A stretch of DNA of 64,000 nt from Acidobacteriota bacterium. GTDB taxonomy: Bacteria; Acidobacteriota; UBA6911; RPQK01; JAJDTT01. The notes beneath the pieces are model-generated. The model searched no databases. It was not told the DNA's origin and saw only the letters and a program-made list of their open reading frames with translations. Shown piece after piece: positions 1,662-20,663 of this stretch. The translations under genes were made by a program, and so were the position numbers. The stretch spans positions 1,888,001 to 1,952,000 of the forward strand of contig CBDCJH010000002.1 in the NCBI GenBank assembly GCA_965217775.1, in the 5' to 3' direction. How positions within the stretch are numbered: position 1 is the first letter of the stretch; each line of letters opens with the position of its first letter.

Positions 1662-1741
1662 CTTCGTATCCCTGAGAGTCCAGCCCGCATTCCTCACCAG
1701 GCCGTTCTCGTCCCGATCTTGGCGACCGCGGTCAGTGGGAC

Positions 1742-3574: not shown

Positions 3575-3623
3575 CGCTCCTCCTTTCCGCGCCTGCTTCA
3601 TTCCCAGAAAAACCTGGGGGCTG

Positions 3624-3712
3624 GGAGGGGGGACATTCTTGTCCCCCTCGGGCCAAAGAATCGGCGGTTGGAAACCGCCGCTCCAATTCGCGGGTTTCAA
3701 ACCGCCGCCCCC
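3624..3712. repeat. GGAG-tagged REP/REPIN-like palindrome cluster
   Basis: GGAGGGGGGACATTCTTGTCCCCC followed by inverted CGGCGGTTGGAAACCGCCGCTCC and a degenerate third copy; intergenic. Confidence 0.75.
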
Positions 3713-3795
3713 ACGCTCCCCCTTATTCTGCCAGTTGGTGTTGTGCTCGCTTCTATCGTTTGGAGATGAACGGCGGCAATCAGAAATGACCGGAC

Positions 3796-5022
3796 TCAAC
3801 CCAGGGACCGGATCTTCTCGATGAGGGGCCAGAAATTCAATTGGTCCACCGCGTGGCCGCGGTACATCCCCACCGAATCGGCTCCGTTGGCCAGAGCGAT
3901 CCGGGCGGCTTCCAGCATCAGCTTGGGGTCCTGGAAACTCCCGACGTGGTAGCAGGACAGCTCCACGATCAGAGGACATCGTCCCCGGATCAATTTTGAG
4001 AACTGGCTCGTGTAGCGTTCCACTCGCCTCACGTCCGAGGTGGTCCGAAACCAGAGGTAGAGTTCGTCCATCAGCGACTCTTCGAGCCAGGCGCGGAGAT
4101 CCTGGAAAGCACCCAGGTAACGATCCCCGTGAGGCCCCGCCAGATCCTGGGCGATGACGGCTATGGTGAGGGGAGCTTCGGGGTGCCGCGCCTTTAGCCG
4201 GCGGCGCAGTTCCCGAAGCGTCTCGGTGACGAATCCCGCCCGGAAGCCGAGCCAGTCCGGGTCATGGTTCGGGAGTCCTGAAGGACTTTTTCCAAAGCGC
4301 TTCCGGTACGCTTCCACCATGGGCGGTTCGTAGCCGTGGATCGCTGCACCGTGGCTGTCCCGGAGCTCGCTCACGAACTCCACCTGCACGCCGTGTCCGC
4401 CCGATTCCTCCACGATCTCCAGGTACCGGTCGACCATGTACGACCGCACCTCGGGCACGGCCAAGCTCATGGAGAGCCGGCTCCCCAGCTTGAGCTCGCG
4501 GTCGCCTTCCCGGTCCAGCGCCCACCAGTCGGGGTGCTTCTTGGCGAACGCACCAATGCTCAGGACCGCCCGGGGGCTGTTCCAGATCGGACGATGCCGA
4601 TCCAGCTTTTCCTTGAGACGGGGGGAGCCGTAGGGAAGACCGATGTAGTTGAGGGACCAGTTGGCCCGTATCCGTCTCGCGCCATGGCTGTTGAACGCCA
4701 TGTAGGGATGCATCGCGATCCCCTTCTCTCCGGCCGCCTGGGCCAGGATCCGGGATCCGCGGGTCGGAACCAGATGGGTCACGCCATGGCGGGCGCACTT
4801 TTCGACGAAGTCGATGACGGCCGCCTCATCGGAGGGCTGAGTCGGACTGATCAATCCGCCCGGAGCACACCAGAGAGAAAACCTGGGATCCCCCGAGCGT
4901 TTCGCCGCCGAAGCCGCAGCCGCCTTCGCGGTCGTGGGTGGAGCCGCGGCGACGGCTCCGTAGGCCAAGCTCCTCTCCAGGAAACGGCGGCGGCTGAGAT
5001 TGGAGGACGACGACTCGGACAT
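3796..5022 (-). CDS. Tat-exported TIM-barrel glycoside hydrolase-like protein (GHL10-like)
   Basis: SRRRFL Tat signal; KKHPDW...LSLAVPEVRSY...GVQVEF pattern typical of GHL10-like proteins. Confidence 0.6.
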   Translation of the reverse strand: MSESSSSNLSRRRFLERSLAYGAVAAAPPTTAKAAAASAAKRSGDPRFSLWCAPGGLISPTQPSDEAAVIDFVEKCARHGVTHLVPTRGSRILAQAAGEKGIAMHPYMAFNSHGARRIRANWSLNYIGLPYGSPRLKEKLDRHRPIWNSPRAVLSIGAFAKKHPDWWALDREGDRELKLGSRLSMSLAVPEVRSYMVDRYLEIVEESGGHGVQVEFVSELRDSHGAAIHGYEPPMVEAYRKRFGKSPSGLPNHDPDWLGFRAGFVTETLRELRRRLKARHPEAPLTIAVIAQDLAGPHGDRYLGAFQDLRAWLEESLMDELYLWFRTTSDVRRVERYTSQFSKLIRGRCPLIVELSCYHVGSFQDPKLMLEAARIALANGADSVGMYRGHAVDQLNFWPLIEKIRSLG

Positions 5023-5025
5023 GAC

Positions 5026-5970
5026 CTACTTCAAGAGGGCAGCGACCTCCTCTTCGTTCCCCTCCTGGGCCAGGGTCCGGGCGGTCTTGCCGTCCTCGTT
5101 CTTGGCCTTGGCGTCGGCTCCCGCCTCCAGCAGCACCTTGATCGCTTCGGCATGCCCGTTGACCGCCGCGTACATGAGTCCGGTCCAGCCCTGATTGTCC
5201 TGCAAGTTGACGTCGGCTCCCGCCTCGACCAGGGCCTTCACGGTTTCCATGTGCCCGCCCTCGGCAGCCCAGACCACGGAGGTCTTTCCATCCGGGTCCG
5301 TTCCTTCCGCATCGACTCCCTCTTCCAGCAGGGCGTTGACGCTCTCAGTATCGCCCAGTCTGGCCGCCAGCAAAACGGACGGAGATCCGTCGCTGGTCAT
5401 GGCATAGGCGTCCGCACCGTGGCTCAGGAGGGCCCGCGCCGTCTCCCCGTGTCCGGCCCCGAGAGCCATGATCAGCGCGGTTCCGCCGCTCTGGTCCGCC
5501 ACGTCCAGGTTGGCCCCCTTCTCCGCCAGCACGCCGATCACCTCTCCGTGGCCCCGTGCCGAGGCCCAAAGCACGGCGGTCCGCTTCCGGTTGTCCTGCG
5601 CCTCCACATCGGCGCCAGCCGCCAGCAGAACTTGCACCGACCCGGCCTGACCGCTCGCCGCAGCGGCCATGAGGGGTGTCCGCTGCTCGGAATCCCGGAT
5701 CTCCATGTCGGCGCCGCCACCGATCAGGGACTGGACCACGGCGTCGTGGCCGTGACCGGCCGCCAGGATGAGGGCGAGCTGTCCCTTCTGTCCCTCTTCC
5801 TCGCTGGCGACATTGGCGTCGGCCCCCTGCACCAGGAGTTCCTTGACGGCGGCGTCATCCCCTTTCCCCGCGGCATCGATCAGGTCCTCGTTGATGTTCC
5901 CGCCACAGCTGCAGAGCAGAAGAAGAGAGGGGGCAAGCAGTGTCACGAATCCCCGAAAATTCAGCATCAT
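5026..5970 (-). CDS. Ankyrin-repeat lipoprotein
   Basis: About 8 repeats of TALxxAAxxGHxxxVxxLLxxGADV; lipobox-like LLLCSC; AAGGAG RBS before ATG 5970. Confidence 0.9.
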   Translation of the reverse strand: MMLNFRGFVTLLAPSLLLLCSCGGNINEDLIDAAGKGDDAAVKELLVQGADANVASEEEGQKGQLALILAAGHGHDAVVQSLIGGGADMEIRDSEQRTPLMAAAASGQAGSVQVLLAAGADVEAQDNRKRTAVLWASARGHGEVIGVLAEKGANLDVADQSGGTALIMALGAGHGETARALLSHGADAYAMTSDGSPSVLLAARLGDTESVNALLEEGVDAEGTDPDGKTSVVWAAEGGHMETVKALVEAGADVNLQDNQGWTGLMYAAVNGHAEAIKVLLEAGADAKAKNEDGKTARTLAQEGNEEEVAALLK

Positions 5971-6145
5971 GGATCTCCTTTCTGAGTTGCGGGACGCGGA
6001 CCGAGCAGTAAATAAATCCGCCACAGGAACGGCCCTCCACCGCCCTTCGGGGTGTTCGGGCCAACGAGCCCTCTCCGAATTGTGTCGGAGTTGCTGGCAT
6101 GATAACACAGCACTTGGGAAATTTACCGGGGAGGAGACGAAGGGG

Positions 6146-7843
6146 TTGAAGAACCGGAAAAGGCAGAATCTGCGCAGCCGCGAGTGGTTCGACACCCCCG
6201 AGCTGTACGGGTGGACTCGACAGGCGGCCTTGCAGGGACTCGGGCTGGACCCCGCGGTGTACCGGGACCGTCCCCTCATCGGAATCTGCAACACCTGGAG
6301 CGAGTTGACCCATTGCAATGCCCACCTGCGCACGTTGGCCCAGCGGGTCAAGGAGGGAGTCTGGCAGGCGGGCGGAGTGCCCTTCGAATTTCCGGTCATC
6401 TCATTGGGCGAGTTCAACATGCGCCCCACCTCCATGCTCTTCCGGAACCTCTTGAGCATGGACGTGGAGGAATGCATCCGGGCCAATCCACTGGATGGCG
6501 TCGTCCTTTTGGGAGGATGCGACAAGACCACGCCGGGACTGCTCATGGGAGCCGTGAGCGCGGACCTGCCGGCGATCCTCGTGACCGGCGGACCGCAACT
6601 CACCGCCCACTGGCGGGGCCAGGAGCTGGGATCGTGCACCGATTGCAGGCGCTTCGAGGTCGAACTTCGAGCCGGGAGGATCGGTCAGGAAGACTGGCTG
6701 GATCTCCAGGGCGCCATGATCCGGAGTCCGGGCCACTGCATGACCATGGGCACGGCCTCCACGCTGGCCACGCTGACCGAAGCCCTGGGACTGGCGCTGC
6801 CCGGGAACGCCGCCTATCCGGCGGCCGACTCCCGCCGGACTCGTCTGGCGCACCGGGCCGGACGCCAGATCGTGCGCCTGGTGGAACTGGACCTGAAACC
6901 GTCCCGGCTGCTGAGCGCCGGCTCGTTCGACAACGCCATCCGGACGCTTCACGCCATCGGCGGCTCCACCAACGCCATCGTTCACCTCCTCGCCGTGGCG
7001 GGGAGGACCAACATTCCACTGTCCCTCAAGAGGTTCGACGAACTGTCCCAGACTACGCCGATGCTGTTGGATCTGAAGCCGTCGGGCCGTTTCCTGATGG
7101 AGGACTTCGCCTACGCAGGCGGCGCCCCGGCGCTCTTGCAGGAGATGGCGTCCCTGCTGGATCTGGACCAGCCCACGGTCACCGGCCGGAGCCTGGGCGA
7201 GAACCTCCAGGGAGCCCGCAACGACAATCCGGAAGTCATCCGCACCATGGACCGCCCCCTGGAGGCCTCCGGCGGCCTTGCCGTCCTTCATGGCTCGCTG
7301 GCCCCGGACGGATGCATCATCAAGCACAGCGCCACGACTCCCGAACTCCTGCGCCATCAGGGTCGGGCGGTCGTCTTCGAAGACCACCACGAACTGATGG
7401 AGGGAATCGACGACCCGGACCTGGACGTCGGTCCCGAGGATGTGCTGGTGCTTCGAGGCGCCGGGCCTCTCGGCGGGCCGGGCATGCCCGAGTGGGGCTT
7501 GCTTCCGATCCCTCGTAAGCTGCTCCGGGCGGGCGTTCAGGACATGGTCCGGATCAGCGACTCACGCATCAGCGGCACGGCTCGCGGAACGGTCGTGGTC
7601 CACGTTTGTCCGGAAAGCGAGGCGGGAGGCCCGCTGGCCGCGGTCCGGACGGGCGATCAAATCCGGCTGAACGTCCCGGCCCGGCGATTGGACCTCCTGG
7701 TGGAGCCGCGGGAGATCCAGCGCCGACTTGAACGCGTCCGACCGAGAGTTCGACCGGCCGCAAGAGGTTACCGCCGGCTCTACTTCAAGCACGTCCTGCA
7801 GGCGGACCAGGGATGCGATTTCGACTTCCTGCGGGCGGGGTAA
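6146..7843 (+). CDS. IlvD/Edd family dehydratase (sugar-acid or dihydroxy-acid dehydratase)
   Basis: ELTHCNAHL, GGCDKTTPG, GHCMTMGTAST, GGSTN, GPGMPE, SDSRISGT motifs; TTG start at 6146 after GAGGAG. Confidence 0.9.
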   Translation: MKNRKRQNLRSREWFDTPELYGWTRQAALQGLGLDPAVYRDRPLIGICNTWSELTHCNAHLRTLAQRVKEGVWQAGGVPFEFPVISLGEFNMRPTSMLFRNLLSMDVEECIRANPLDGVVLLGGCDKTTPGLLMGAVSADLPAILVTGGPQLTAHWRGQELGSCTDCRRFEVELRAGRIGQEDWLDLQGAMIRSPGHCMTMGTASTLATLTEALGLALPGNAAYPAADSRRTRLAHRAGRQIVRLVELDLKPSRLLSAGSFDNAIRTLHAIGGSTNAIVHLLAVAGRTNIPLSLKRFDELSQTTPMLLDLKPSGRFLMEDFAYAGGAPALLQEMASLLDLDQPTVTGRSLGENLQGARNDNPEVIRTMDRPLEASGGLAVLHGSLAPDGCIIKHSATTPELLRHQGRAVVFEDHHELMEGIDDPDLDVGPEDVLVLRGAGPLGGPGMPEWGLLPIPRKLLRAGVQDMVRISDSRISGTARGTVVVHVCPESEAGGPLAAVRTGDQIRLNVPARRLDLLVEPREIQRRLERVRPRVRPAARGYRRLYFKHVLQADQGCDFDFLRAG

Positions 7844-8196
7844 CACCGCCAAATTCCGTAGAACGGCCAGGAGGGGTTGGATTGGACCTAAACTTAGGGC
7901 ATAGATTAAGGGGAAGATCCATTTCGGGAGTGGTGATGGTGGGCAAACCCATCTCCCGGGGAGTTGGGAGTCAAACAGAGCAGATCATAGCTTATGCCGT
8001 GTGCCATTGGATTGTTGCGCCTGTCGGGTCCAATTGATTTCGTACCATCCAGAAGCATACATATTCCGTATAGATGTTTGGTCGAAGCAATTCCTTTCCC
8101 GTGAGGAATAGGTGCCCGTCAATGTTAAAATCCTCTTCTCTGGTGGACTTGCGACTCAAGGGACAACAAATTGACATCCATCGGACAGGATGACAA

Positions 8197-9060
8197 ATGA
8201 CAAGCAATCAAGGACAGCTTCCGCTTCGAGAGATGACCCCAACGACCTATCACGGTCTACGCAAGGCAGTTATAAACTTGACTAAGGCTTTCCGCAAGGC
8301 AACAACCCAATTGGAGAAGCTCAAGCGGACTACGAACATGAATGAAACTCTGTTAGTGCTTGATAGGACCATTGCTGCCCTACGGGCGATTGGCCTTGAA
8401 GATGCAATCCAGAGATTTGACAGCAAGCGTACCACGTTGGTCCAAAAGAGAGATCAGGCGCTGAAATCTCGGCGTGAGGACCTCGTTCGCTCTGCGAAAG
8501 ATGCCGGGTGGAGAGTAAGGCGGTTGAAGCGCTACGACTTTGTTGGTTGCTTTCAGGTGAACTACCGTCACCAGAAAGTGATACTACGCATAGGGAGTGA
8601 GACGCTCAAAACTCTCGACGAGGTGGATGGAGTGAGCTTATTCTCGCGCCTGCAGGCAGAACTACAGGCGCTGGACACATCCCCGTTTTCGCGTAGCAGC
8701 TTCTTGGGGTCGATCAAGGGGGCTATGACACTCGCCCGAACTCAGGGTGTTGACCGAAATGGCAAAGTGCCTATTCGCAAACTCTTTCCTTTAGTCGTGC
8801 TCGTCCGGCAGAGTCAGGACCAACGCTTCCTGAAGCGGCCTGCCGTCAGGTCTTTCGTCGACTACTCGAGCGCTCAGTTCGTCTATGACTTGGCAAGATT
8901 TGGACGAAACGGGTGGCGAACGGACCAAGGCGAGCGCCTTTGCAACCAACCACCAAACATGGGGTCCATAGCCAAGGGCACGACGGTGACGCTCCCGTCG
9001 CTTAAAGGGGACGGTAGTGGCCGTATACAAATTGGCGCGGTTTGGGTCAAGAAAGGATAG
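8197..9060 (+). CDS. Hypothetical protein with coiled-coil N-terminus; first gene of the ATPase-helicase operon
   Basis: 287-aa ORF, helical and charged N-half, YSSAQFVYDL segment; 6 bp from the next gene. Confidence 0.7.
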   Translation: MTSNQGQLPLREMTPTTYHGLRKAVINLTKAFRKATTQLEKLKRTTNMNETLLVLDRTIAALRAIGLEDAIQRFDSKRTTLVQKRDQALKSRREDLVRSAKDAGWRVRRLKRYDFVGCFQVNYRHQKVILRIGSETLKTLDEVDGVSLFSRLQAELQALDTSPFSRSSFLGSIKGAMTLARTQGVDRNGKVPIRKLFPLVVLVRQSQDQRFLKRPAVRSFVDYSSAQFVYDLARFGRNGWRTDQGERLCNQPPNMGSIAKGTTVTLPSLKGDGSGRIQIGAVWVKKG

Positions 9061-9066
9061 TCTGCG

Positions 9067-10257
9067 TTGAAACTCGTCGAGGTGCTGGCCCATCTTGCGG
9101 AGCAAGGTACACCGCCAAATGATGGTGAAGCCGTCTTACGCGTCTCAGCAGGTTTGAACAAGTCCTTGGAAAGGATCGCGAAAGAGACACTTCCATTCAT
9201 CGCCAGCGGGGGCGGCGAACTCCAGTTTGTCTTCGGACCTTATGGACGTGGGAAGACACATTTCCTCAAGGCGCTATCGCAATGTGCGCTGCAACGAGGT
9301 TTCGTTACGGCCTACGTAGACTGTCAAGAAAATCAGAGCCCGTTCAAATCCCTTATCGAAACGTACCGAGCGATCGCTGCCACCATGACACCATCAGGGA
9401 AGCATCAATTCCTCGGCACCTCCGGAATCGCAAAGGTTATCGAAGCGCAATTTATTGGCAGGGACGCGACAGCGCAGCAGGCGCTGGTCGATCGCCTGAA
9501 GAAGAACACAGCTTTAACACCGGATTTCAGAAATCTCGTCATAGCCTACGGTAAAGAAGTATGTCGCGGCGACGAAGATCTTGCCGAACGTCTCGATGCG
9601 CTCTTGGCAGCGAAGCGAACCTACCGCGTTACCCTTGGTTACTTGTACCGAAAGTATCCGGACTTGCCCAGGCCGTTGGGAAAACTCTTTCGGCGCAATG
9701 CAGCCGTCTGGCTACGTGCGGCCCTTTCGCTGCCACAGGCACTCGGATATTCTGGATTACTTGTTCTTTTCGATGAAACCGAAACCGCTTTGCTGCGTAG
9801 CGGACCTCGTCAGAAACAGACCCATCTGGCACATATTCGTACATTTGTCGATCATATGGCGACTGGAGCGTTTCGCGGTTGCGCAGTCTATTACGCCGTT
9901 GCAGAAGAGTTTATTGAGATCGCACATGATAACCTCGCAGCGTTGAGCCAGCGCATAGATCGAGCCAAAGTACCTGAATTGGGGAATAAGCGTAACCCAC
10001 GTGCGGTCTGGGTAGATCTTGACGAGTTGACTGTGCCGGGACCAACGAATCCTTCGTTCTTCATGGAATTGGCTGAATCTATCGTCAATATTGGCCTCGA
10101 GTCTGGCCTGAATCCCTCTGCCGTACCTCCTATCATGGGTCTCCTAAAGAGACTGGCCCACAACCACGCCAGGAGCATAAACGAAGGCAATGTGCGTGAG
10201 TACGTCAAGGAAGCTGCCTCGATAGTTGCAAATAAACTATTTATGGACACGCCGTGA
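9067..10257 (+). CDS. BrxD/DUF2791-like P-loop ATPase 1
   Basis: Walker A GPYGRGKT, Walker B LLVLFDETE preceded by GYSG, ALSQR arginine-finger-like motif. Confidence 0.8.
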   Translation: MKLVEVLAHLAEQGTPPNDGEAVLRVSAGLNKSLERIAKETLPFIASGGGELQFVFGPYGRGKTHFLKALSQCALQRGFVTAYVDCQENQSPFKSLIETYRAIAATMTPSGKHQFLGTSGIAKVIEAQFIGRDATAQQALVDRLKKNTALTPDFRNLVIAYGKEVCRGDEDLAERLDALLAAKRTYRVTLGYLYRKYPDLPRPLGKLFRRNAAVWLRAALSLPQALGYSGLLVLFDETETALLRSGPRQKQTHLAHIRTFVDHMATGAFRGCAVYYAVAEEFIEIAHDNLAALSQRIDRAKVPELGNKRNPRAVWVDLDELTVPGPTNPSFFMELAESIVNIGLESGLNPSAVPPIMGLLKRLAHNHARSINEGNVREYVKEAASIVANKLFMDTP

Positions 10258-10267
10258 GAGACTAGAT

Positions 10268-11554
10268 ATGAACGAGAATGAAGCAACACAACTCTGGGCG
10301 ACATTGGGAGCGGAAGGCAAATCACCAACAGAGCTTTCGCGTGCGTCACAGGTTCTACCAAGCTACACCGTTGGGATTGATCCGTGGATTGATCGACTTT
10401 CAGGACGGTACCTAAAAAACCTTTGTCGAGAAGCCGCTCACTTCAAGCTTATCTTGGCACCTTATGGCGGAGGAAAGACACACTTCCTTCTAAGTCTTGG
10501 CGGACGGGCACTCTCGGAGAATTTTGCCGTCTCTTACGTCCCTTGTAGCGAGGGCGTAGGGTTGGACAATTCGCTTGCCGTCTACAAGGAAGTTGTCAAA
10601 AACCTACAACTGCCTGACCGACGACGTGGTGTGCGAGTACTCTTGGAAGAAGTCGTCCGCTCAAAACGAGAAGAAATTCGGCGCCTTGGTGTTCCAGAGG
10701 TGGAAGTTGCCTTTCGACGTTGGATGTACACAATTCGCCGAGGCGACTATCCGGAGAACGCCTTTGGACGTGTGATGAAGGCAGCTTTGGAGGCGGCAGA
10801 TTCGGGCGACGACTCGCCTATAGGCGAAGCTGCTTTACGCTGGTTACAGGGGGATCCAGACACTCTCACGAAAACCGAATTGCAGGAGCTGCGCTTGGCT
10901 AGGGTTCCTGCGGCGAGCCGAAAACAATTTGGGCGGGATCTACTACTATCTGCCGTCAAGTTCCTACCCCACGCAGGCGTGCATGGGCTTGTACTTCTAA
11001 TGGATGAAGTAGAGACCCTGTTTCAAGCACGAGGGAAAGCGTTACTCCGGATACTCGCCGCCATGCGTGTCATTCTGGACATGCCAACCGGTGTCCCCGG
11101 CGGTCTTCCATTATTTGGTGTCTTTTCAGCGACACCAGACGTGCTTGAAGAGTTTCGTCGCTACCCGGCTCTAGAGCAACGTATGGCCGTGCGCGGAGCC
11201 ACGTTCGGTGAGGGCAACGACTTGGCCACACAGCTACCCCTCGAAGAGGTTCAGAGTCAAGAAACATTCCTAGCGGAAATCGGTGAAAAGTTGATCGAAG
11301 TCGGGGCAATTGCTACCGGCCATTCATTCGACAACGAATTGCAGAAATCTAATGCTCAACTATTGGCGCATGTGGCCTCCGAGCGAAGCCTCGACGTTGA
11401 TGCTCGCCGAGTATTTATAAAGACTTGGGTTGGCCTGCTTGATTTCCAGCGGGTCGAGGGTGAGCGGGAGTTTGATTTTAACGAACTGGCAGGTCGCTAT
11501 TCAGGTTCGTTTCACTCATTCATAGAAACCGAATCCGAGAGCTATGAGCCGTGA
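10268..11554 (+). CDS. BrxD/DUF2791-like P-loop ATPase 2
   Basis: FKLILAPYGGGKTHFL, ALRWLQG, GLVLLMDEVETL, YPALEQR, all characteristic of BrxD-type ATPases. Confidence 0.85.
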   Translation: MNENEATQLWATLGAEGKSPTELSRASQVLPSYTVGIDPWIDRLSGRYLKNLCREAAHFKLILAPYGGGKTHFLLSLGGRALSENFAVSYVPCSEGVGLDNSLAVYKEVVKNLQLPDRRRGVRVLLEEVVRSKREEIRRLGVPEVEVAFRRWMYTIRRGDYPENAFGRVMKAALEAADSGDDSPIGEAALRWLQGDPDTLTKTELQELRLARVPAASRKQFGRDLLLSAVKFLPHAGVHGLVLLMDEVETLFQARGKALLRILAAMRVILDMPTGVPGGLPLFGVFSATPDVLEEFRRYPALEQRMAVRGATFGEGNDLATQLPLEEVQSQETFLAEIGEKLIEVGAIATGHSFDNELQKSNAQLLAHVASERSLDVDARRVFIKTWVGLLDFQRVEGEREFDFNELAGRYSGSFHSFIETESESYEP

Positions 11555-12912
11555 GATCAGGCGAGAGGATTCAGCACCCAGAACTGGGCGACGGAACAGT
11601 GAAATTCGTTATCTCGCGCGGCGGCAAGGCCGGTGCACAGGTGGACTTTGGCTACATGTCCGCGTGGATATCGCGGGAGGAACTGGGTTTTCGCGAGCAG
11701 CATGACCGATTGCCGGGCCCCATATCAAGCCCGTCAGAAACTGCGGCCACAGAAATCCACCTACCGACATTATCCAATGATGTTGTGGAGGCAAGGCGCG
11801 CAATCCTAGCGCTCAAGCTCGGTCAGGTTCTTGAGGAGAACGTCCTCGATTTGAGTATTGGAACGGACGACATCCGAACCTCATTAGAGCGGGCTGTTGG
11901 CGGTGTCGCCCGTAGGCGACCGGCCAGTATCCTGTTTAAGGGTTCCTGGGGTAGCGGTAAGACCCATCTGCTCACGATGCTGAACAAATTAGCCGCCGAC
12001 GGGGACCTTGCGACGGCGTCGGTAATACTGGATGGCGAAGGTGTCAGATTTTCGGAGCCGATGGGCTTAATGGAGACACTTCTTGGCTCCCTTAGGTATC
12101 CAGGCGAAGCCGTACCGCGGGGCATCAGCGAACCGGTGGTTTCCCTGCGGCGCAAGTTCACCTACAAATATGAGGTGGAGCGGCGTTTGGGTTGGCGGAT
12201 TGCGAATGCGATCTTTCAGGTACCGATGCGTTGTCTGGATGAACCCGACACAATAGACGTGTTAGAAGATTACTTCAGGATGACGTTGCCTGCTACGCAC
12301 GCAAACGTGAAGCTTTGGCGCCTCGGCAATCGGGGAATTGCCCTTCCTCCACTGAAGGCATGGAGGGTCGCAGAAAGGCCTAATCGATTTTGTAATCTCT
12401 TGAAGGGGTGGGCGGAGTTTTGTGCATTAACCGGAGCCAAGGGGCTGGCCGTCGCATTCGACGAAGTAGACGTAGAATACGCGAGCACAATTTCTAACGG
12501 CCATCGGCGCTGGCTACGAAGAAACTTGCTGAAGGCGTTTCGAACAATTCTAAAAAAAAACGTTCCGCTTCTGCTCGCGTTTGGGAGCGCCCCGGCCAGC
12601 GATGTCGATGACGAGAACGACGCCGTCATAGACTTGGTCCGAAGCGTTGGCAGGATGGATCTTGAGATAGAGGTGCCGCAGCCCGATCTTGAGCAAACGC
12701 GGGAACTAGGCCAACGAATAATCGGCTTGTATGCAAAAGCATACCCGGATCGGATGTCCAACGTCGACGTTCAGAAGCTGAAGCTCCTGATCGACCGATT
12801 CGCAGAACATCACCAACGAGGACTTAATCCTGCACCCCGCAACTTCGTGCGCGGGGCGCTTGAACGGCTCGACGTGGCTCCCGGTCTGGAGAGCTATATC
12901 AAAATTGGTTGA
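11551..12912 (+). CDS. BrxD/DUF2791-like P-loop ATPase 3 with N-terminal Tudor/SH3-like module
   Basis: GERIQHPELGDGTV N-terminus; ARRAILALKLGQV; Walker A GSWGSGKTH; Walker B AVAFDEVD; GTGA overlap with the upstream gene. Confidence 0.8.
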   Translation: MRSGERIQHPELGDGTVKFVISRGGKAGAQVDFGYMSAWISREELGFREQHDRLPGPISSPSETAATEIHLPTLSNDVVEARRAILALKLGQVLEENVLDLSIGTDDIRTSLERAVGGVARRRPASILFKGSWGSGKTHLLTMLNKLAADGDLATASVILDGEGVRFSEPMGLMETLLGSLRYPGEAVPRGISEPVVSLRRKFTYKYEVERRLGWRIANAIFQVPMRCLDEPDTIDVLEDYFRMTLPATHANVKLWRLGNRGIALPPLKAWRVAERPNRFCNLLKGWAEFCALTGAKGLAVAFDEVDVEYASTISNGHRRWLRRNLLKAFRTILKKNVPLLLAFGSAPASDVDDENDAVIDLVRSVGRMDLEIEVPQPDLEQTRELGQRIIGLYAKAYPDRMSNVDVQKLKLLIDRFAEHHQRGLNPAPRNFVRGALERLDVAPGLESYIKIG

Positions 12913-12936
12913 GCGCCATATGCGACCGATATAACC

Positions 12937-15123
12937 ATGGCTAATGATAAATATATCGTCAAATCCTTAGGTACGATTGGAAGTGCGTTTTTCGGATCTT
13001 TTCGGACGCTTCGCGAAGTTCAGAGAAGGACGATTCCACCGATCCGTTCAGGGAAAGATGTCCTTGTAGCCTCGGCGACTGCGTCTGGCAAGACCGAAGC
13101 CATAGTGGCACCACTCATTTCAAGGACGCTGGATGGGACGGCAAGAGGCCTGCCCCGGATTCGCGTGCTTTTGACCGCACCAACCCGCGCCCTCGTCAAC
13201 GACTTGGCAGCAAGGATCGAGCCGCCGCTAACGCGGCTCGGATTGAGCTGCGGGCGCCAGACCAGCGATCACCGGGACAAAGGTAAGGAACCGTTCGTAC
13301 TTATCACTACTCCAGAATCGTTCGATTCGATGTTAGTGCGCGATGCGCGGTTGGAGGCTGGGAGGGTGACTGACCATCTACTTGCCGGCGTGTCGGCAGT
13401 ATTCATCGACGAGGCGCACCTCTTCGACGGAACTGCTCGTGGTGACCAAATGTCCTGGCTCCTAGGTCGTCTTCGTCGTCTGCGCCAACTAAATGCGGAC
13501 GGCGGCTCAAGCGACGCAAAGCGTTTACAGGTGTGCGCAGCCAGTGCCACCATCAGCGATCCGGGGGGTCTCGCGTATCGGCTCTTGGGAACCGATGCAG
13601 TCGCGGTCCAAGTTCCAGGCTTGAGGCAGATCGATGTATTCGGAAACTCGGCTGCACCTGACTGGTTTCCACTTGAATCGTCGATAACGATTGAGAACTT
13701 GCGCGATCGTCTGGGAATCGTGACATTCACAAATTTCCTCGAACAGGCGGAGAGACGAATCTGGCAGGCTTTGTCCAGCGGAGACGATGATCGCATGCGA
13801 AAAGCGCTTGTGTTCGTTCCAAGCCGCAAACTATCCGATGAACTCTCCACCCATCTCAATAGCACATTACCCTTGCACCGCGATCTGAAGGTGCTGCCGC
13901 ACCACGGTAGCTTGGCACAGGGTGTCCGGGAAAACTCTGAGCGGACGTTCTCCTCGACGCGCGACGCTGTGCTAGTAGCGACAACTACCTTGGAAGTAGG
14001 TGTCGACATTGGGGATGTGGACTTGGTCGTTCTTGTCGGTTCGCCACCCGGTACGCGCTCATTGTTGCAGCGGATTGGTCGGGCGGGCCGCAGAATCGGC
14101 CGCACTCGAGTCTTGGCTCTTCCTCGGACCGGGATCGAGCTCGCAGCCATCGCAAGCATGCTGATTTCCGCGCGGGACGGGATTCTGGAGCCCGAGGGAT
14201 ACGCTCGCAGGTGGTCCGTGTTCGTCCAACAAGCAGCCAGCTTCGTCGCTCAAGGTAGACCTCGCGGTCGGAGACGATCCGATTTGCTCGATTTAGCGCA
14301 GGATGTCTGGCCAGAGAAAGGGAGGGGAACGCCAGACGAGATCGTGGACCGACTACTCGACGCCGAGTATCTCGTCGAGGGTCGAGGCCGACTTGCGATA
14401 GGTGAGCATTGGGCAGATTTCTTCGACGTTGGTGGTCCGGGTATGCACGCAAATTTCGGATCGTCCAGTGGAGGCATTCCGGTGGTGGACGCCAACACTG
14501 GCGAGGTCGTCGCACACGTTGCTCAGAGGCCTTCCGAAGATAGAGAGATTGCTCTAGGAGGGCAACGATGGGACTTGCAAGCCATCGATGGCGAACTCCT
14601 ACTAAAACCCAAGGGAGCTGGACCTGTTCGCGATAGTTTTCAATACGCGGCGCGGCGTGGTCCGACTGATCTCGAATACGCTGTGCATGTAAGGCGTGGC
14701 TTAGGACTTGGAGAGGACGATGCACCGCTCATAAATTCGCCTCGTGGCTGGATCTGGCTTCATTTTGGTGGCAGCGCATATCAGACATTATTGTGCCATC
14801 TCTTGCCGGGCCTTAGTCCGACCGCTGGGTTGGCTGGAGTGGCGGTTAAGGGAATTCCTAGTGATGGTGAACTAAACCAACTAGCTACTGACCGTGACGA
14901 ATTGCGTGTTGCGGTAGAGGAACATTTTGAGGAACTTGAACGACTACTCGCGGTGGGTCCATATCAGCGTTACCTCACCAAGCATTGTCGTCAACGAGTT
15001 GTGACGGGGCTGTTTGACCTGCCGTCATTCCAAGACTGGCTGAAGACTCGCCGTGTGCGAGAAATAGCACCCGACGATCCGTGCTCGAAATACATATGTA
15101 CAGCACTCGTGGAAAGACGGTAG
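12937..15123 (+). CDS. Lhr/BrxHI-like SF2 DEAH-box helicase
   Basis: SATASGKTEA, PTRAL, TTPES, DEAH, SAT, HHGSL, ATTTLEVGVDIGDVD, QRIGRAGR. Confidence 0.9.
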   Translation: MANDKYIVKSLGTIGSAFFGSFRTLREVQRRTIPPIRSGKDVLVASATASGKTEAIVAPLISRTLDGTARGLPRIRVLLTAPTRALVNDLAARIEPPLTRLGLSCGRQTSDHRDKGKEPFVLITTPESFDSMLVRDARLEAGRVTDHLLAGVSAVFIDEAHLFDGTARGDQMSWLLGRLRRLRQLNADGGSSDAKRLQVCAASATISDPGGLAYRLLGTDAVAVQVPGLRQIDVFGNSAAPDWFPLESSITIENLRDRLGIVTFTNFLEQAERRIWQALSSGDDDRMRKALVFVPSRKLSDELSTHLNSTLPLHRDLKVLPHHGSLAQGVRENSERTFSSTRDAVLVATTTLEVGVDIGDVDLVVLVGSPPGTRSLLQRIGRAGRRIGRTRVLALPRTGIELAAIASMLISARDGILEPEGYARRWSVFVQQAASFVAQGRPRGRRRSDLLDLAQDVWPEKGRGTPDEIVDRLLDAEYLVEGRGRLAIGEHWADFFDVGGPGMHANFGSSSGGIPVVDANTGEVVAHVAQRPSEDREIALGGQRWDLQAIDGELLLKPKGAGPVRDSFQYAARRGPTDLEYAVHVRRGLGLGEDDAPLINSPRGWIWLHFGGSAYQTLLCHLLPGLSPTAGLAGVAVKGIPSDGELNQLATDRDELRVAVEEHFEELERLLAVGPYQRYLTKHCRQRVVTGLFDLPSFQDWLKTRRVREIAPDDPCSKYICTALVERR

Positions 15124-15426
15124 CTTAATGGGCACCGTGACGGAACACGAGAGGACAACCTCATCGGGTCAGTCAGGTCAGGGTCCGAGCCACAAACCCA
15201 AGTTGATAGTCATCTACTCTGAGGTGCCAACGCCGCGGCGCGGTTCCACGAAGCTTCGAGGAATTGATCGAGTAAGATAGCGGCCGGTCCGGTCATTGCC
15301 CAACCTAGCTTATGTACCGCAAAGTGGAAAGAACCGCTCCGCAGCCACTCAGACAACCATGGATCGGCTGGGGCCTTACTCCTCGGCTCGTTTTTGAACC
15401 GCATTGATAGAATCGCGATCACCACG

Positions 15427-15684
15427 TCAGGCGCCGAGATCCTGGAACAGTTCCTCGGCGCTGTTGAATCGTTTGCCCCTGCCTTGGTCCAATTCCTCCA
15501 TTGCCTTGGCGGTAGCAGCATTCGGCACCCGGACAGCGAACGGCAGCCGCTTCTCATCTGCAACCCGCAGCAGCAACAAACGAATGGCGTCTGACACCGA
15601 CAAGCCCATTTCATGAAGAGCTTTTGCCGCTCGTGCTTTGGTGTCGCTATCGATCCGTGCGCGTACGACAGTATCGTGACTCAT
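15427..15684 (-). CDS. dinJ: RelB/DinJ family antitoxin (orphan)
   Basis: VVRARID...GLSVSDAIRLLL...LPFAVRVPNAATAKAMEEL...FNSAEELFQDLG. Confidence 0.85.
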   Translation of the reverse strand: MSHDTVVRARIDSDTKARAAKALHEMGLSVSDAIRLLLLRVADEKRLPFAVRVPNAATAKAMEELDQGRGKRFNSAEELFQDLGA

Positions 15685-15833
15685 CCACATGCCTCCGAGT
15701 TTATAGCTCTATTGTAGCTACATTAGTCCCTCATCGCTACGCTTGGAGGATCCCGGTCAATGGCAGATATGTTCCGTCTACAACTAAGAAAACACTTCGC
15801 TCACTTCAAGGTGGGGGAGCAGGAGCGGCGGCT

Positions 15834-16588
15834 GTGCGCCAGGCTAACTGGCACAAGATAGGCGGTGAAAGTCCGCTGAAACGAAGGATTAACCATCCAC
15901 GTTTCCCCGCGAGCCGTGCGTGGGCATTAGGAGGCTGTCCGAGAACTCGGTTTTCGTCCAAATCGACATCTTTAAGTTATTGATTTATAAGAGGATAGTT
16001 TTTTCGGAGTCGTGAGTTTTCGAGTTCTCGGACAGGCTCCTAGTAAGGGTGTCGGCGAAGCGTCGGTAGCGGTGCGTATGGGCAGGCTATTGAGCACCGA
16101 AAGCTCCATGATCGGAAGCGCCGAGACTGTAGTCGCGGTCGAAGGTAACACTGGCTGGACCGACAGGGTGAGGGACAGCCGGGCTCCGCGGTGTCATAGA
16201 ACCCATGCACGTACGTAAATCTCGTGTCGGGACCTGGGAGGGCTTGCTCTCTCCCCGGCGAGAGCCGGGGCCTTGTGGGAAAGGAGAAAGCCGTAACCCA
16301 TGAGGGGAGAGAGGAAGCAATCGGATTCATCCATGGTAGTGATGAAGCGGGCGAACAAGGAGGGGGAACTCTCTGCGGAGTCCGTGAAGCGAAGGGATAG
16401 AACCAAGGGGAATTCGGCTCACCAAAGTACGGACCGGACCCAGAGCCGGGTAGCCGTGACACAGGCGGGGGTCGGATACGGCTGGCGTCGCAGCCAGCCG
16501 TCATTACCTGAGGTAGGAGCCGTGTGCCTTAACGGGCACGCACGGATCTGCGCGGGGGGCGCTGGGCAACCGGCGTCCCTACCGCGAC
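15834..16588 (+). ncRNA. ORF-less group II (IIB-like) intron
   Basis: 5' GTGCG; domain V GAGCCGTGTGCCTTAACGGGCACGCACGGATC with AGC triad at 16518; domain VI ending CCCTACCGCGAC; recognisable DI-DIII motifs; no RT ORF in DIV. Confidence 0.9.
15930..16040. mobile_element. 111-bp MITE nested in intron domain I
   Basis: TIRs GGAGGCTGTCCGAGAACTCG / CGAGTTCTCGGACAGGCTCC (19/20 match), AT-rich core, TA on both flanks. Confidence 0.8.
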
Positions 16589-16715: not shown

Positions 16716-18599
16716 TCACTTTTGCCGCAAGCACCAGCGGACGGCGTTCTTCATCAGGCGCTGGTACATGGGATGAAACAGCGGTTCGGCCGGGTGGCCG
16801 CTGGCCAGATGGCAGACTCTTCCCTTCCCGACCTCGCGGACCCAGCCGGCGGGGACTGCGATTCCGTTGTCCATACGACTCTCCAGAATCATGTGGACCT
16901 GACTCTCGTCGTAGAGGACAGGCGTGTGCTGCTCGTCCGCCGTGGTGAAATCGCCGACCCCCTCGGTGATGGGATGGTCCGGGTCCACGACCTCGACGCG
17001 GAAACGCTCGTAGGGTCCGTGGCCGATGTACCGGCCTCCCACCAGCTTCAGGTAGGGTCCGGCGGGAGGATAGAGACCCAGGGAGTTGTGGAGATTCAGG
17101 AAGGAGCCTCCCTTCTCGACGAAATCCGCCACGGCCCGCTCCTGATCCAGGGTCATCCAGGTCTTGATCTCCCCATGAAGGGGATCCACCAGAGTTCTCA
17201 AGAGTTCCCGGCCCTCGCCCACGCGTTCCACTTGACGGCCGTCCCGCAGAATGACCAGCAACTGGACCCGGGACAGGTTCTTCGCGGACAGGGCGTTCAC
17301 GTCCACGGTGAAGTGGGGAGTGACGCCGGAGGCCTGGAACACCAGACTCAGCGCTTTCCGGATCGGAGCGGGTGGATGGGGACTGTCCCCGATCAGGACC
17401 AGCGCATGGGCACTGGAGTCGCCGGGTTGGGGCGGACGGCCGTGGAAGGGAGCGTTGGGGACCGTGAGCTCCCGATAGACATGGGCAACCTGTGGGTCTC
17501 TGGGGCGCGTATGGGTGGTCCAGTACTGCAGTCCGTCGGGAATCCGGACATATTTCTGGACCTCGGGCAGGGAGAATCCGATGGCGATCCCATAGGCGAC
17601 CTCGTCGCGGAGCTCCACCAGGAGGTCCCGCAGCCGTTCCACCATGCCCGAACCGGTCCAGGAACCGAATCCGGGAACTACCTCCCGGGCGCCAAGTTCC
17701 TGGAGGCGCTCCAGAACCTCGATCCAGGCTGCGGTGTCCTTGCCCGCAGGATTGAATCGGATCCCGTTCATGACCAAAGGACCACCGAAAAGGACTTTCT
17801 CTTTCTGGAGATAGAGGGCCCCGGCTCCCTCGTCCCAGACCTCGTCCAGGGGCAAAAACTGGATGGACCGGGCCGAATCTCCCACGAATCCAGGACTCGA
17901 CAGGGCCGTCACCATCGACGGGTCCAGATCCGGCATCCCGGCCAAGAGACGCTCGCGGATCCTGGAGGAAGTGAGGATTTGGGTCACGCCCCCCTTGACC
18001 AGCGCGCCGACCAGAGGAGCGATGGGATCCAACCCCATCGGTTCGGCGGAGCGATACCAGCGCTTCTCCACTGGCTCGTAGGCCGAGGAGGTCCCCCAGG
18101 ATGGATCTTCCCAGATGTGGGTCAAGACCAGACGCCGGGCGGGCCGGATACCCTTGCCCGTGACCCGGTCCAGATAGGCCTCGACCGATCGGCCTCGGGG
18201 CAGGTCGATCAACAATGTCTCCCCATCCAACTCCACCCACCCGCAGTTGGCACTGGCAAATTGGTGGGAGAAGCCGGCGGCGTGAACTCCGGGACCCAGT
18301 TCCGCGTGGTGAGGGAGAAGTTGCGGTTGCGACTCGGCAGTCATCAGTCCTGTGGAGAGTACCAGAATCAACAACAAGCCAAACGGTCCGAGCCTCTTAC
18401 CAGGAGGGGCGATTTCCAGTCGCCTCTTTCTCCGTTCCGCCCTGCGCTCGTTCTCGTCTGTTTCGGCCGGAGTTCGGCGGTTGGAAACCGCCGCTCCCAG
18501 CGACTGACCATCGGGTCCGAGCCTTGAAGAATGCGGGATGGCTCCCAATACACTCGATCCCCCGAAACAAGCTGTCGAATTGGCCCCGTGAAATGACAT
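16716..18599 (-). CDS. MBL-fold plus ThuA (class I glutamine amidotransferase-like) domain protein; start uncertain
   Basis: ANCGWV...LIDL...LVLTH, VVPGFG degenerate MBL motifs; C-terminal GGSFLNLH...HPIT...DEQH...GKGRV...GH ThuA motifs; AGGAGG before ATG 18599. Confidence 0.7.
   Translation of the reverse strand: MSFHGANSTACFGGSSVLGAIPHSSRLGPDGQSLGAAVSNRRTPAETDENERRAERRKRRLEIAPPGKRLGPFGLLLILVLSTGLMTAESQPQLLPHHAELGPGVHAAGFSHQFASANCGWVELDGETLLIDLPRGRSVEAYLDRVTGKGIRPARRLVLTHIWEDPSWGTSSAYEPVEKRWYRSAEPMGLDPIAPLVGALVKGGVTQILTSSRIRERLLAGMPDLDPSMVTALSSPGFVGDSARSIQFLPLDEVWDEGAGALYLQKEKVLFGGPLVMNGIRFNPAGKDTAAWIEVLERLQELGAREVVPGFGSWTGSGMVERLRDLLVELRDEVAYGIAIGFSLPEVQKYVRIPDGLQYWTTHTRPRDPQVAHVYRELTVPNAPFHGRPPQPGDSSAHALVLIGDSPHPPAPIRKALSLVFQASGVTPHFTVDVNALSAKNLSRVQLLVILRDGRQVERVGEGRELLRTLVDPLHGEIKTWMTLDQERAVADFVEKGGSFLNLHNSLGLYPPAGPYLKLVGGRYIGHGPYERFRVEVVDPDHPITEGVGDFTTADEQHTPVLYDESQVHMILESRMDNGIAVPAGWVREVGKGRVCHLASGHPAEPLFHPMYQRLMKNAVRWCLRQK
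18403..18497. repeat. REPIN-like inverted REP pair
   Basis: GGAGGGGCGATTTCCAGTCGCC ... CGGCGGTTGGAAACCGCCGCTCC. Confidence 0.75.
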
Positions 18600-18726: not shown

Positions 18727-19710
18727 TCAAGGGACCAGGACCGCGGCCCCATCGAGTTCGCCCTGCTTCAACCGCCGGAGGGCTTCGTTGGCTTGATCCA
18801 GAGGAAACTCCTCGGTTTCGGTGCGCACCGGCACCCGCGGCGCCACGTCCAGAAACTCGACCGCGTCTTTCCGGGTCAGGTTGGCCACCGAACAGAGCCG
18901 GCGCTCCTCCCAGAGCAGGCGGTAGGGAAACGACGGGATGTCGCTCATGTGGATTCCGCCCAGGACCACCGTTCCTCCCTTGTCCACGGCTTCGAGCGCC
19001 AGCGGCACGAGAGGACCCACCGGAGCGAAGATGATGGCGGCATCCAGCGGTTGCGGCGGTTTCCCATCCGAGCCCCCGGCCCAGACCGCTCCCAGCGAAC
19101 GGGCGAACTCCTGCGCCGTCCGATCGCCGGGACGGGTGAAGGCGTAGACGCTTCTGCCCTGGTGACGGGCCACCTGGGCGACGATATGGGCGGCCGCTCC
19201 GAACCCGTAGAGGCCCAGGCGGCGACCCGGACCGGCCATGACCAGCGACCGATAGCCGATGAGGCCGGCGCACAGGAGTGGGGCCGCCTCCACGTCCGAG
19301 TATTCCTGGGGCATGGGAAAACAGTAGCGCTCGTGGGCCACGACCTCCTCGGCGTAGCCTCCGTTCAACGTATACCCGGTGAACCGGGCCCGCGTACAGA
19401 GATTCTCCCGGTCCGACCGGCAGTAGCCGCACTGCCCGCAGGTCCATCCCAACCAGGGGATTCCGACCCGGTCACCGATGCCGTGCCGCCGCACGCCGGG
19501 ACCCAACTGGGTCACGACACCCACGATTTCATGCCCGGGGATGATGGGTAGCTTGGGGTCGGTCAGATCTCCGTCCACCACGTGGAGGTCGGTCCGGCAC
19601 ACGGCGCAGGCCCGTACCTGAACCCGCACCTGACCCGGCCCCGGCTGCAACGGCGGCAGATCCACCTCCTCCAGGCTCGTCCCCGGCCGCCTCAGGATCA
19701 TGGCCCGCAT
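18727..19710 (-). CDS. Zinc-dependent alcohol dehydrogenase
   Basis: CRTDLH, PGHE, CGQCGYC...ENLC, PLLCAGLIG, GFGAAAH. Confidence 0.93.
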   Translation of the reverse strand: MRAMILRRPGTSLEEVDLPPLQPGPGQVRVQVRACAVCRTDLHVVDGDLTDPKLPIIPGHEIVGVVTQLGPGVRRHGIGDRVGIPWLGWTCGQCGYCRSDRENLCTRARFTGYTLNGGYAEEVVAHERYCFPMPQEYSDVEAAPLLCAGLIGYRSLVMAGPGRRLGLYGFGAAAHIVAQVARHQGRSVYAFTRPGDRTAQEFARSLGAVWAGGSDGKPPQPLDAAIIFAPVGPLVPLALEAVDKGGTVVLGGIHMSDIPSFPYRLLWEERRLCSVANLTRKDAVEFLDVAPRVPVRTETEEFPLDQANEALRRLKQGELDGAAVLVP

Positions 19711-19711
19711 T

Positions 19712-20536: not shown

Positions 20537-20663
20537 CCAAGCCTCCAGTCATTCCAGTGTCAGCGTCGTCGGGTCCGCATTGTTTCTGCCCCTTCCCACC
20601 GAGTCAATTGAACCCGCCGCGCCTTGACTCACCCCGGTGTGGAAACTACCATCCCGAACCATC

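Follow-up and report, generated by a model that had tools for sequence, protein, structure and literature searches.

The window analyzed here is the whole 64,000-nucleotide stretch taken from contig CBDCJH010000002.1 of an Acidobacteriota genome assembly (GCA_965217775.1; positions 1,888,001 to 1,952,000, forward strand), and its subject is a cassette of five genes, called g1 to g5, that encode in this order a basic protein, three P-loop ATPases and a helicase of superfamily 2 (SF2). A first-pass annotation, made from the letters of the sequence, had described five co-oriented and tightly spaced genes in an island lower in GC than its flanks, and had proposed them as a candidate new defense system. 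The open reading frame (ORF) calls agree with that description: the intergenic gaps g1/g2, g2/g3, g3/g4 and g4/g5 are 6, 10, -4 and 24 bp (the g4 start and the g3 stop share 4 bp), and in 1-kb windows the fraction of guanine plus cytosine (GC) is 0.51-0.58 at about 7500-16500 as compared with 0.63-0.68 on both sides. The upstream neighbor is ilvD, and downstream lie, according to Pfam, a RelB-type antitoxin gene on the opposite strand, small ORFs and a ThuA-like gene. No clear sigma-70 promoter was found, the single promoter-like site lying inside g5 on the minus strand as against 4.0 expected from shuffles. Coordinates are collected in Table 1.

Table 1. The cassette and other features mentioned in the text; positions refer to the window unless another locus is named.
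Feature	Position	Strand	Remarks
Low-GC island with the cassette	7850..16500		between ilvD (+, ends at 7843) and the ThuA-like gene (-); from GC windows and Pfam
Five-gene cassette, g1-g5	8197-15123	+	
g1	8197-9060	+	287 amino acids (aa); basic protein, marker gene of the cassette
g2	9067-10257	+	396 aa, TTG start; BrxD-like P-loop ATPase of PF10923
g3	10268-11554	+	428 aa from ATG (longest ORF from TTG at 10226); most canonical of the three PF10923 ATPases
g4	11551-12912	+	453 aa, GTG start; predicted Tudor domain and divergent PF10923 ATPase
Tudor-like domain of g4, UvrD/PcrA type (predicted)	11551-11685	+	about residues 1-45 (~35-45 residues)
g5	12937-15123	+	728 aa; Lhr-like SF2 DEAH helicase
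74-aa ORF	15210-15434	-	
RelB antitoxin ORF	15427-15690	-	PF04221, 4.9e-23
Inverted repeat, 22 nt	15928-15949 / 16021-16042		95% complementary, arms 71 nt apart
154-aa ORF	16040-16504	-	
Longest ThuA-like ORF call	16716-18599	-	ThuA domain at residues 411-623
tRNA-Ser(GGA) gene	18447-18536	+	
WYL-domain protein and 715-aa AAA ATPase	42609-45792	-	PADLOC WYL 7.2e-28; IetA-like matches 7e-26
Locus L019, type III-E gRAMP (Cas7-11-like)	7881-11528	-	PADLOC 5.4e-248
Locus L024, MADS-like operon mad2-mad5-mad6-mad7	357-9644	-	runs off the locus end
Locus L024, rve/TnsB-like gene	19259-20620		downstream

The three ATPases all belong to PF10923 (BrxC_BrxD, formerly DUF2791), a membership that the first-pass annotation had put forward for checking by profile search: each passes the gathering score of 22.2 bits, g2 with 95.4 bits (E 4.8e-27), g3 with 103.0 bits (E 2.3e-29, over nearly the whole profile) and g4 with 60.7 bits (E 1.6e-16, best stretch residues 81-167). 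Among the PADLOC models, which were used here without curated cut-offs, BrxD matches best (8.3e-27, 1.2e-22 and 3.7e-11 for g2, g3 and g4) and SngB, the ATPase of the Shango system, comes second (5.4e-9, 9.2e-12 and 2.3e-4, or 33.6, 42.8 and 18.3 bits); marginal matches at the P-loops were returned by BrxC on g4 (E 0.001, 15 bits) and by mad8 on g2 (E 0.004, 14.7 bits). The Walker A (GxxGxGKT-H) and Walker B (D-E) motifs, noted as intact at the outset, vary little or not at all among 20 g2, 15 g3 and 17 g4 orthologues. Homologues of g3 number 285 at E<=1e-5, the best 120 of them at least 55% identical, and a phmmer search against 1.84 billion representatives gave 425 proteins at E<=1e-3. The idea that the nearest non-orthologous relatives are true BrxD or SngB proteins was rejected: on the BrxD model all 23 representatives sampled stay at 59-161 bits, and on SngB they score lower still, so that the PF10923 family is broad and mostly unclassified and unnamed.

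The ATPase had also been called triplicated, which stands as far as three PF10923 copies are concerned and fails if a recent event is meant. Pairwise identity is 27% over 89 aa for g2 and g3 and 25% over 251 aa for g3 and g4, with g2 and g4 aligning at the P-loop only. A midpoint-rooted FastTree phylogeny was built from 168 sequences, namely the orthologues counted above together with 116 PF10923 representatives (picked by likeness to g3; 150 listed, 34 dropped for a length outside 360-500 aa). Each of g2, g3 and g4 is monophyletic in this tree (support 0.998-1.0), and the common ancestor of g2 and g3 spans 108 of the 116 other representatives; the long stem branch of g4 (1.7) is a caveat to its reading. 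The low pairwise scores and the tree together rule out a recent tandem triplication, and the three ATPases are, by their sequences, old lineages and old paralogues. They also differ at one family-wide position: the arginine of an 'ALxQR' motif, whose location suggests an arginine finger, is kept throughout g2 (20 of 20) and g3 (15 of 15) and in 114 of 116 other family members, but g4 orthologues have it in 7 of 17 cases only. Prediction of a g3+g4 complex reached the mark 'weak support' with a score of 0.46 (best of 3 controls 0.00), the runs agreeing in at least 37% of contacts with a partner pLDDT (predicted local distance difference test) of at least 77. Among solved complexes 58 of 80 attained that mark, and among mismatched pairs 2 of 110; at 0.60 or under it was attained by only 7 of the 80 and by both passing mismatches. 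The prediction was run on alignments made for this analysis, and these benchmark counts hold for it only roughly.

At its N-terminus g4 carries, in addition, a putative Tudor-like domain of the UvrD/PcrA type. When a profile of 17 g4 orthologues was searched against the PDB, five solved UvrD/PcrA Tudor chains were matched at 1.1e-4 to 3e-3 (9dqs_A 1.1e-4; 7egs_B 5.1e-4; 6yi2_A 5.9e-4; 4c2t_A, residues 698-729, 9.7e-4; 7egt_B 3e-3), followed by CarD at 0.15-0.44, and the whole-g4 profile recovered the same Tudor chains at 0.0096-0.036 and nothing else. Single g4 sequences reach at best 17.3 bits on Pfam PF21196, whose gathering score is 23.9 bits, with 4 of 11 orthologues at E 0.0045-0.05, and an HxxxGxG stretch is conserved in the region. 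The Tudor domains of PcrA and UvrD are reported to bind RNA polymerase (available text of PMC5397179, PMC8318588 and 10.1101/2020.07.06.189035), and UvrD/PcrA to suppress R-loops (PMC8318588, same limitation).

The helicase g5 was first read as an intact SF2 DEAH enzyme resembling Lhr and BrxHI, and the domain, sequence and fold searches bear this out. Its Pfam domains are DEAD (2.4e-28) and Helicase_C (9.3e-20), and 16 orthologues share motif I (GKT), the DExH motif and the arginines of motif VI without exception. PADLOC returns BrxHI at 1e-70 (residues 22-551 only) and SngC at 1.6e-54 (183.9 bits). The best PDB sequence matches are Lhr structures, 5v9x (4.6e-21) and 7lhl, and an AlphaFold2 model built from 16 sequences (pLDDT 81.1) has Lhr 5v9x_A as its top Foldseek match (E 1.5e-21; template modeling score 0.62, normalized to the query over the whole model; 853 alignment columns). 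Orthology to Lhr or to the ligase-associated helicases is a stricter matter: g5 stays under every NCBIfam helicase cut-off (TIGR04121, 142.5 vs 850; NF010338, 133.6 vs 849; NF007284, 75.5 vs 1496). What g5 does have is a DExH core with accessory domains and a modeled fold like that of Lhr, so that the label 'Lhr-like' is justified. With the Walker motifs kept and the helicase motifs invariant, all parts of the cassette look active.

The protein encoded by g1 is of a different kind, and basic (median isoelectric point 9.8). It has no match at E<=0.1 in Pfam, PADLOC or NCBIfam, and among its 151 homologues at E<=1e-3 none carries a Pfam domain except one read-through artefact; that protein (P0096, 484 aa), considered as a g1-ATPase fusion, runs on from g1 into the N-terminal part of g2 and is treated as a gene-call or frameshift artefact because the text that follows looks out of frame. 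Longer fused forms of g1 were not found, a negative of little weight. The initial description as a coiled-coil protein is only partly borne out: an AlphaFold2 model (pLDDT 84.9) does begin with three long helices (residues 18-102) and continues into a five-stranded sheet and an alpha/beta domain. Foldseek returned no match to this model at E<=1e-3 in the PDB or BFVD, the g1 profile gave helix-bundle noise in the PDB and nothing below E 0.05, and the ESM Atlas held clusters of hypothetical proteins only. Assignment as a TerB-like protein, a nuclease or another known fold was discarded, there being no family match and only helix bundles at E 0.04-0.2 as best Foldseek results. Judged from its model, g1 is a protein without known fold.

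For the distribution of the cassette, an alignment of 25 g1 homologues served as bait in a search of one genome per species of GTDB, which yielded 24 loci, and the five proteins were compared with each by tblastn. One locus (L001) represents the window's own contig, leaving 23 others. All five genes stand in the same order and strand at 18 of the 24 loci (17 of 23 without the window's own contig, in several phyla, as a survey of gene neighborhoods suggested by the first-pass annotation was meant to reveal); every gene gives an unbroken match at 14 of these 18, the matches being split in L002, L007, L012 and L021. Of the remainder, L010, L013, L015 and L016 are remnants and L020 and L023 are cut by contig ends. 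Such conservation of order is more than chance. A sixth gene family common across phyla did not emerge from an all-vs-all comparison of 323 greedily picked ORFs, the only recurring extra families being those syntenic among Vicinamibacterales. The five genes moreover diverge in step, L024 being the most distant for every gene, followed by L018 and L019. At six Vicinamibacterales loci (L005, L009, L011, L012, L013, L015), and at loci of that order only, a divergent ORF on the minus strand, up to 1255 aa long and without Pfam or PADLOC match, is conserved immediately 5' of the cassette; plain synteny may account for it, or it may be a partner specific to this lineage.

Complete cassettes occur in Acidobacteriota, Binatota, Alpha-, Beta- and Gammaproteobacteria and Verrucomicrobiota; the host groups over all loci, assigned by record title and NCBI taxonomy, are Acidobacteriota (including Vicinamibacterales and Candidatus Multivorans), Candidatus Binatota, Alpha-, Beta- and Gammaproteobacteria, Syntrophobacteraceae, Planctomycetaceae and Verrucomicrobiae, and most g1 and g3 homologues come from metagenomic sources. 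The window copy is closer to copies from a Gammaproteobacteria metagenome-assembled genome (MAG; g3 71%, g5 67%) and a Binatia MAG (69%, 66%) than to those of Vicinamibacterales (about 63%). The GC of the cassette is below that of its flanks at 15 of 16 loci. Several copies are damaged. The remnants L013 and L015 have an ISAzo13 transposase directly 3' of g2 and a DDE_Tnp_1 transposase directly 3' of a g3 fragment, respectively, and L016 has DDE_3 about 200 bp upstream and 2.6 kb downstream, while the remnant L010 has no transposase nearby, its g2 fragment being followed by an ORF without family and, beyond that, a type III restriction enzyme. A single Vicinamibacterales chromosome (OZ242003.1) bears two cassettes about 1.9 Mb apart, L014 intact and L012 broken. 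In L012 an insertion of ~1.9 kb separates g1 from g2, g3 is split, and the helicase, which breaks off at residue 521, lies beside a Mu-type transposase. With respect to the window itself, the cassette is not letter-for-letter that of the public contig CATOST010000027.1 (L001, 10001-16927), and tblastn puts the identity of the proteins at 98.7-99.7%. This figure is lowered in part by the M that stands for the TTG start of g2 and the GTG start of g4, and the translations contain real substitutions, four in g4 and one in g3.

The surroundings of the 23 other loci were scanned within about 6.5 kb of the cassette (112 ORFs in Pfam, 111 in PADLOC). That no BREX (bacteriophage exclusion) core and no TerB accompany the five genes had been claimed for the window, and the claim extends to these loci, whose scanned flanks contain no PglZ, BrxC/PglY or TerB. 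BREX core proteins, TerB, nucleases and methylases were likewise found neither in the five proteins (Pfam, PADLOC, NCBIfam) nor in 28 neighboring ORFs (Pfam) or 35 other ORFs of the window (PADLOC). A PADLOC match at E<=1e-8 is present at 10 of the 23 loci, and the systems vary: a HEC-01B ATPase (5e-200) and a mad1-like MerR (L002); PDC-S02 (DUF1016 nuclease), PDC-S01 and a ClpB-like AAA protein, the last a generic match (L003); PtuB of Septu (L005); PDC-M57B (L008); PDC-S02 and a type III restriction enzyme (L010); a PD-Lambda-1 fragment (L013); a type I restriction enzyme, an Mrr-like PDC-S02, RmrT and RmrA (L018); a type III-E gRAMP (L019); a GajB-like helicase (L020); and mad2, mad5, mad6 and mad7 (L024). 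Strong matches include REase_I at 4e-174 and REase_III at 3e-130. The gRAMP gene lies directly 3' of the cassette on a Methylobacillus MAG contig. The MADS-like operon belongs to a Verrucomicrobiae MAG and stands divergently and directly beside the most distant cassette copy (mad2/MTase_II 2.7e-226; mad6/PglW-like NERD-kinase 2.4e-112; mad7 4.5e-114), without OLD-like mad3/mad4 between mad2 and mad5. This is the sole locus with BREX-like parts adjacent (the PglW-like NERD-kinase and the methylase), and the best matches of these parts are to MADS, described in the available text of PMC13662399 as an eight-gene system in which MAD3/4 and MAD7/8 are ATPase-nuclease modules. At many other loci the neighbors are metabolic or unannotated.

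Enrichment in defense islands, which had been proposed as a check, was gauged against 35 window ORFs from outside the island, a small control from one genome with crude ORF picking. At 1e-8, PADLOC matches 19 of 111 flank ORFs vs 3 of 35 control ORFs, and at E<1e-50, 12 of 111 vs 1 of 35; the 3 control matches are all to generic domains (ankyrin repeats, WYL, AAA ATPase). The counts point the way that had been expected, and a control of this size and origin makes them suggestive only.

The reading that best accommodates these observations, to which a probability of about one half is given, is that the cassette is a stand-alone defense module in which ATPases regulate a helicase, related in kind to Shango and to BrxD-BrxHI of type 2 BREX, self-contained and horizontally mobile; the five-gene unit is probably an unnamed relative of the known anti-phage helicase systems. 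As to how it might work, g2, g3 and g4 would form an asymmetric AAA+ hetero-oligomer, with g4 placed at one end because it alone relaxes the family-wide arginine. Binding and hydrolyzing ATP, this assembly would recognize foreign or aberrant DNA and there load or license the Lhr-like helicase g5, a role suggested by the pairing of a PF10923 ATPase with a helicase in Shango and type 2 BREX. The g1 protein would fill the slot of Shango's TerB-like protein and act as a family-specific sensor or adaptor, and the Tudor domain of g4 would anchor the complex on a partner, which, if PcrA/UvrD is a guide, could be RNA polymerase. Since no nuclease domain is recognizable, the helicase would interfere by its own action, or a nuclease of the host would be recruited to do so.

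Several points weigh against this reading. A role in defense, anti-phage or anti-plasmid, is one that we infer solely from homology and neighborhood, and the family, fold and profile searches recognized no effector, nuclease, toxin or membrane domain in the five proteins. Lhr is a repair helicase, so that a housekeeping-like role is conceivable. On the BrxD equivalog model of NCBIfam (NF033438) the ATPases score 92.3 (g2), 79.4 (g3) and 40.3 bits (g4) and do not reach the cut-off of 350; falling so far under it, they are members of the PF10923 superfamily but not BrxD proper. Of the 23 other loci, 13 have no defense match in their scanned flanks, and the excess of defense neighbors leans toward defense islands without establishing them. 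The ATPase ring imagined in the first-pass annotation as heteromeric has three pointers (the g3/g4 overlap, the relaxed arginine of g4 and the g3+g4 prediction), of which the last gives weak support. Finally, a search of 72,556 plasmid and 50,697 phage records gave no match to g1, and for g3 there is a single weak match (26.6% identity) among the same 72,556 plasmids; in the absence of a convincing plasmid match for either and of a phage match for g1, no vehicle of transfer is seen for a module taken to be mobile.

A bolder variant of the same scheme would have the three ancient, ORC/Cdc6-like ATPases ride on RNA polymerase, or be recruited to it, as an asymmetric hetero-oligomer by way of the g4 Tudor domain, g1 sensing transcription of the invader and the loaded helicase stripping R-loops, primers or replication/transcription complexes, a nuclease-free, transcription-coupled immunity. 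It is a long shot; if true, it would represent a new defense logic, with the loading of the helicase as the effector step.

Among explanations of another kind, the cassette might be an accessory module that depends on a neighboring modification or restriction system and supplies it with a helicase, as BrxD-BrxHI do in type 2 BREX. The lack of a recognizable nuclease in the cassette would be explained in this way, and some neighbors fit, with the MADS-like operon directly beside the cassette at L024, type I restriction enzyme and Mrr-like genes directly upstream at L018, and a DUF1016/YhcG nuclease directly upstream at L003 and L010. The neighbors vary from locus to locus, however, with no extra family shared across phyla and with the 13 loci that have no defense match nearby, and in the window the island holds nothing besides the cassette but the RelB-type antitoxin gene and small ORFs; the similar Shango system, furthermore, worked when cloned alone (10.1101/2022.11.11.516204, available text), and dependence on neighbors is on balance unlikely. 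A module for DNA repair or for conflicts between transcription and replication, optional and horizontally spread, in which the helicase is directed by the Tudor domain to stalled RNA polymerase, would comport with Lhr being the nearest solved relative of g5, with the resemblance of the g4 Tudor domain to that of the RNA-polymerase-binding, R-loop-suppressing UvrD/PcrA (PMC8318588, available text) and with the metabolic or unannotated neighbors at many loci. It is harder to reconcile with the patchy spread, the low-GC islands, the copies inactivated by insertion sequences and the duplicate on one chromosome, a patchy, low-GC and decaying distribution being typical of dispensable genes of fast turnover, or with the fact that the characterized PF10923 relatives in PADLOC are those of BREX and Shango, and this explanation is considered quite improbable.

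There is also the prospect that the five genes replicate or maintain an unrecognized integrated mobile element, with initiator-like ATPases of the ORC/Cdc6 type and a helicase at work on the DNA of that element. The available text of PMC12839542 places BrxD-type ATPases among the ORC/Cdc6 AAA+ proteins, the cassette lies in a low-GC island, and transposases occur near L004, L012, L013, L015, L016 and L024. These transposases, however, are found in or beside disrupted copies and are not members of the unit; no gene for an integrase, a recombinase, partition or conjugation accompanies it consistently, no direct repeats suggestive of attachment (att) sites were seen flanking the window's island, and the plasmid and phage searches with g1 and g3 described above gave nothing convincing. 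This explanation is accorded very little credence. The stand-alone defense module is preferred over it and over the two before it, and with the tools used here none of the findings that the first-pass annotation had named as refuting was made: the homologues are not always embedded in BREX/Pgl loci, the unit matches no named system in PADLOC-DB 2.0 or the papers searched, and its order is conserved in other genomes.

A few further features of the window are recorded here for their own sake. The low-GC island also includes, just 3' of the cassette, the RelB antitoxin gene; the ORF of 74 aa in the position expected of a RelE-type toxin was considered as its partner and set aside, having no Pfam match at E<=0.01. 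The inverted repeat is located between the RelB gene and the 154-aa ORF. The tRNA gene overlaps the 5' part of the longest ThuA-like ORF call, whose true start, given the location of the ThuA domain within it, is probably well downstream. Far from the island, the gene for the WYL-domain protein adjoins that for the 715-aa AAA ATPase, and the two may be another small defense-type pair.

The wider interest of the cassette lies in the fact that PF10923 ATPases and Lhr/BrxHI-like helicases occur in both type 2 BREX and Shango and their role is understood in neither. Here the ATPase-helicase partnership is isolated from methylase, phosphatase and TerB, the ATPase having become three specialized subunits, and two parts unseen in type 2 BREX and Shango are added, the orphan-fold basic protein g1 and the Tudor domain; what appears to be new is thus a three-ATPase module of the Shango/BrxD-BrxHI type with a Tudor domain on g4 and an orphan-fold partner. 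It could serve as a cleaner model of ATPase control over a helicase and of whether a helicase protects without a nuclease. The cassette is common in environmental bacteria, with at least 285 homologues of g3 and 151 of g1 at the thresholds given above, and this environmental spread, together with its absence from the plasmid and phage collections searched, may explain why defense-island screens centered on cultured model species would have passed it over. PADLOC-DB 2.0 (2023) contains no model specific to it, the matches being those borrowed from BrxD, BrxHI, SngB and SngC, with none for g1. That it is a system already named in print was likewise rejected, full-text searches on BrxD/BrxHI, DUF2791, PF10923, Shango and Lhr-like defense helicases having turned up no account of the five-gene unit: the 2026 BREX survey, in its available text, covers only DUF499- and HerA-centered relatives (PMC12839542), and the YprA preprint deals with other helicases. 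The mad1-mad8 set of MADS is not found in the cassette either, MADS-like genes being present only as neighbors at L024.

Among the closest known systems is Shango. It consists of SngA, a TerB-like protein, SngB, a PF10923 ATPase, and SngC, a DEAD/DEAH helicase; like the cassette, it is a stand-alone operon in which a small protein without enzymatic function is combined with an ATPase of the PF10923 type and an SF2 helicase, without methylase or recognized nuclease. Its three genes were reported to protect Pseudomonas and E. coli from phages (10.1101/2022.11.11.516204, available text); literature searches found no paper on its mechanism. The cassette differs in that g1 matches neither TerB (Pfam) nor SngA (PADLOC) at E<=0.1, in having three ATPases of deeply separated lineages, one of them with a putative Tudor domain, in place of one, and in scoring higher on the BrxD and BrxHI models than on those of SngB and SngC. 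The BrxD and BrxHI models point to type 2 BREX (Pgl), whose BrxD and BrxHI are the best PADLOC matches and where the ATPase gene likewise lies beside the helicase gene. In the available text of PMC12839542 the two are called a 'tightly linked dyad' and BrxD is proposed to load or activate the helicase, its role being also termed 'uncharacterized'. However, PglZ, BrxC/PglY, PglX and PglW, which characterize type 2 BREX, are absent from the window and from the scanned flanks of 22 of the 23 other loci, and no methylase is present in the window's island. Lhr, the nearest solved relative of g5 by sequence and by fold, shares with it the DExH motifs, but g5 lacks the long C-terminal extension of Lhr and is encoded in a mobile five-gene cassette, whereas Lhr is encoded alone. 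The Tudor domain of PcrA/UvrD (PF21196) aligns in the PDB profile search with the N-terminal ~35-45 residues of g4, but in PcrA/UvrD it is at the C-terminus of an SF1 helicase, unlike in g4, where it would be at the N-terminus of an AAA+ ATPase. Heteromeric AAA+ loaders of the ORC/Cdc6 type consist of several paralogous subunits with conserved ATP sites, and offer a comparison of working principle only. The cassette would resemble them in encoding, together with a helicase, paralogous AAA+ subunits of which one has a relaxed trans-acting arginine; it differs in being known from its genes, with the g3-g4 contact weakly predicted and the ORC/Cdc6 class taken from the available text of PMC12839542.

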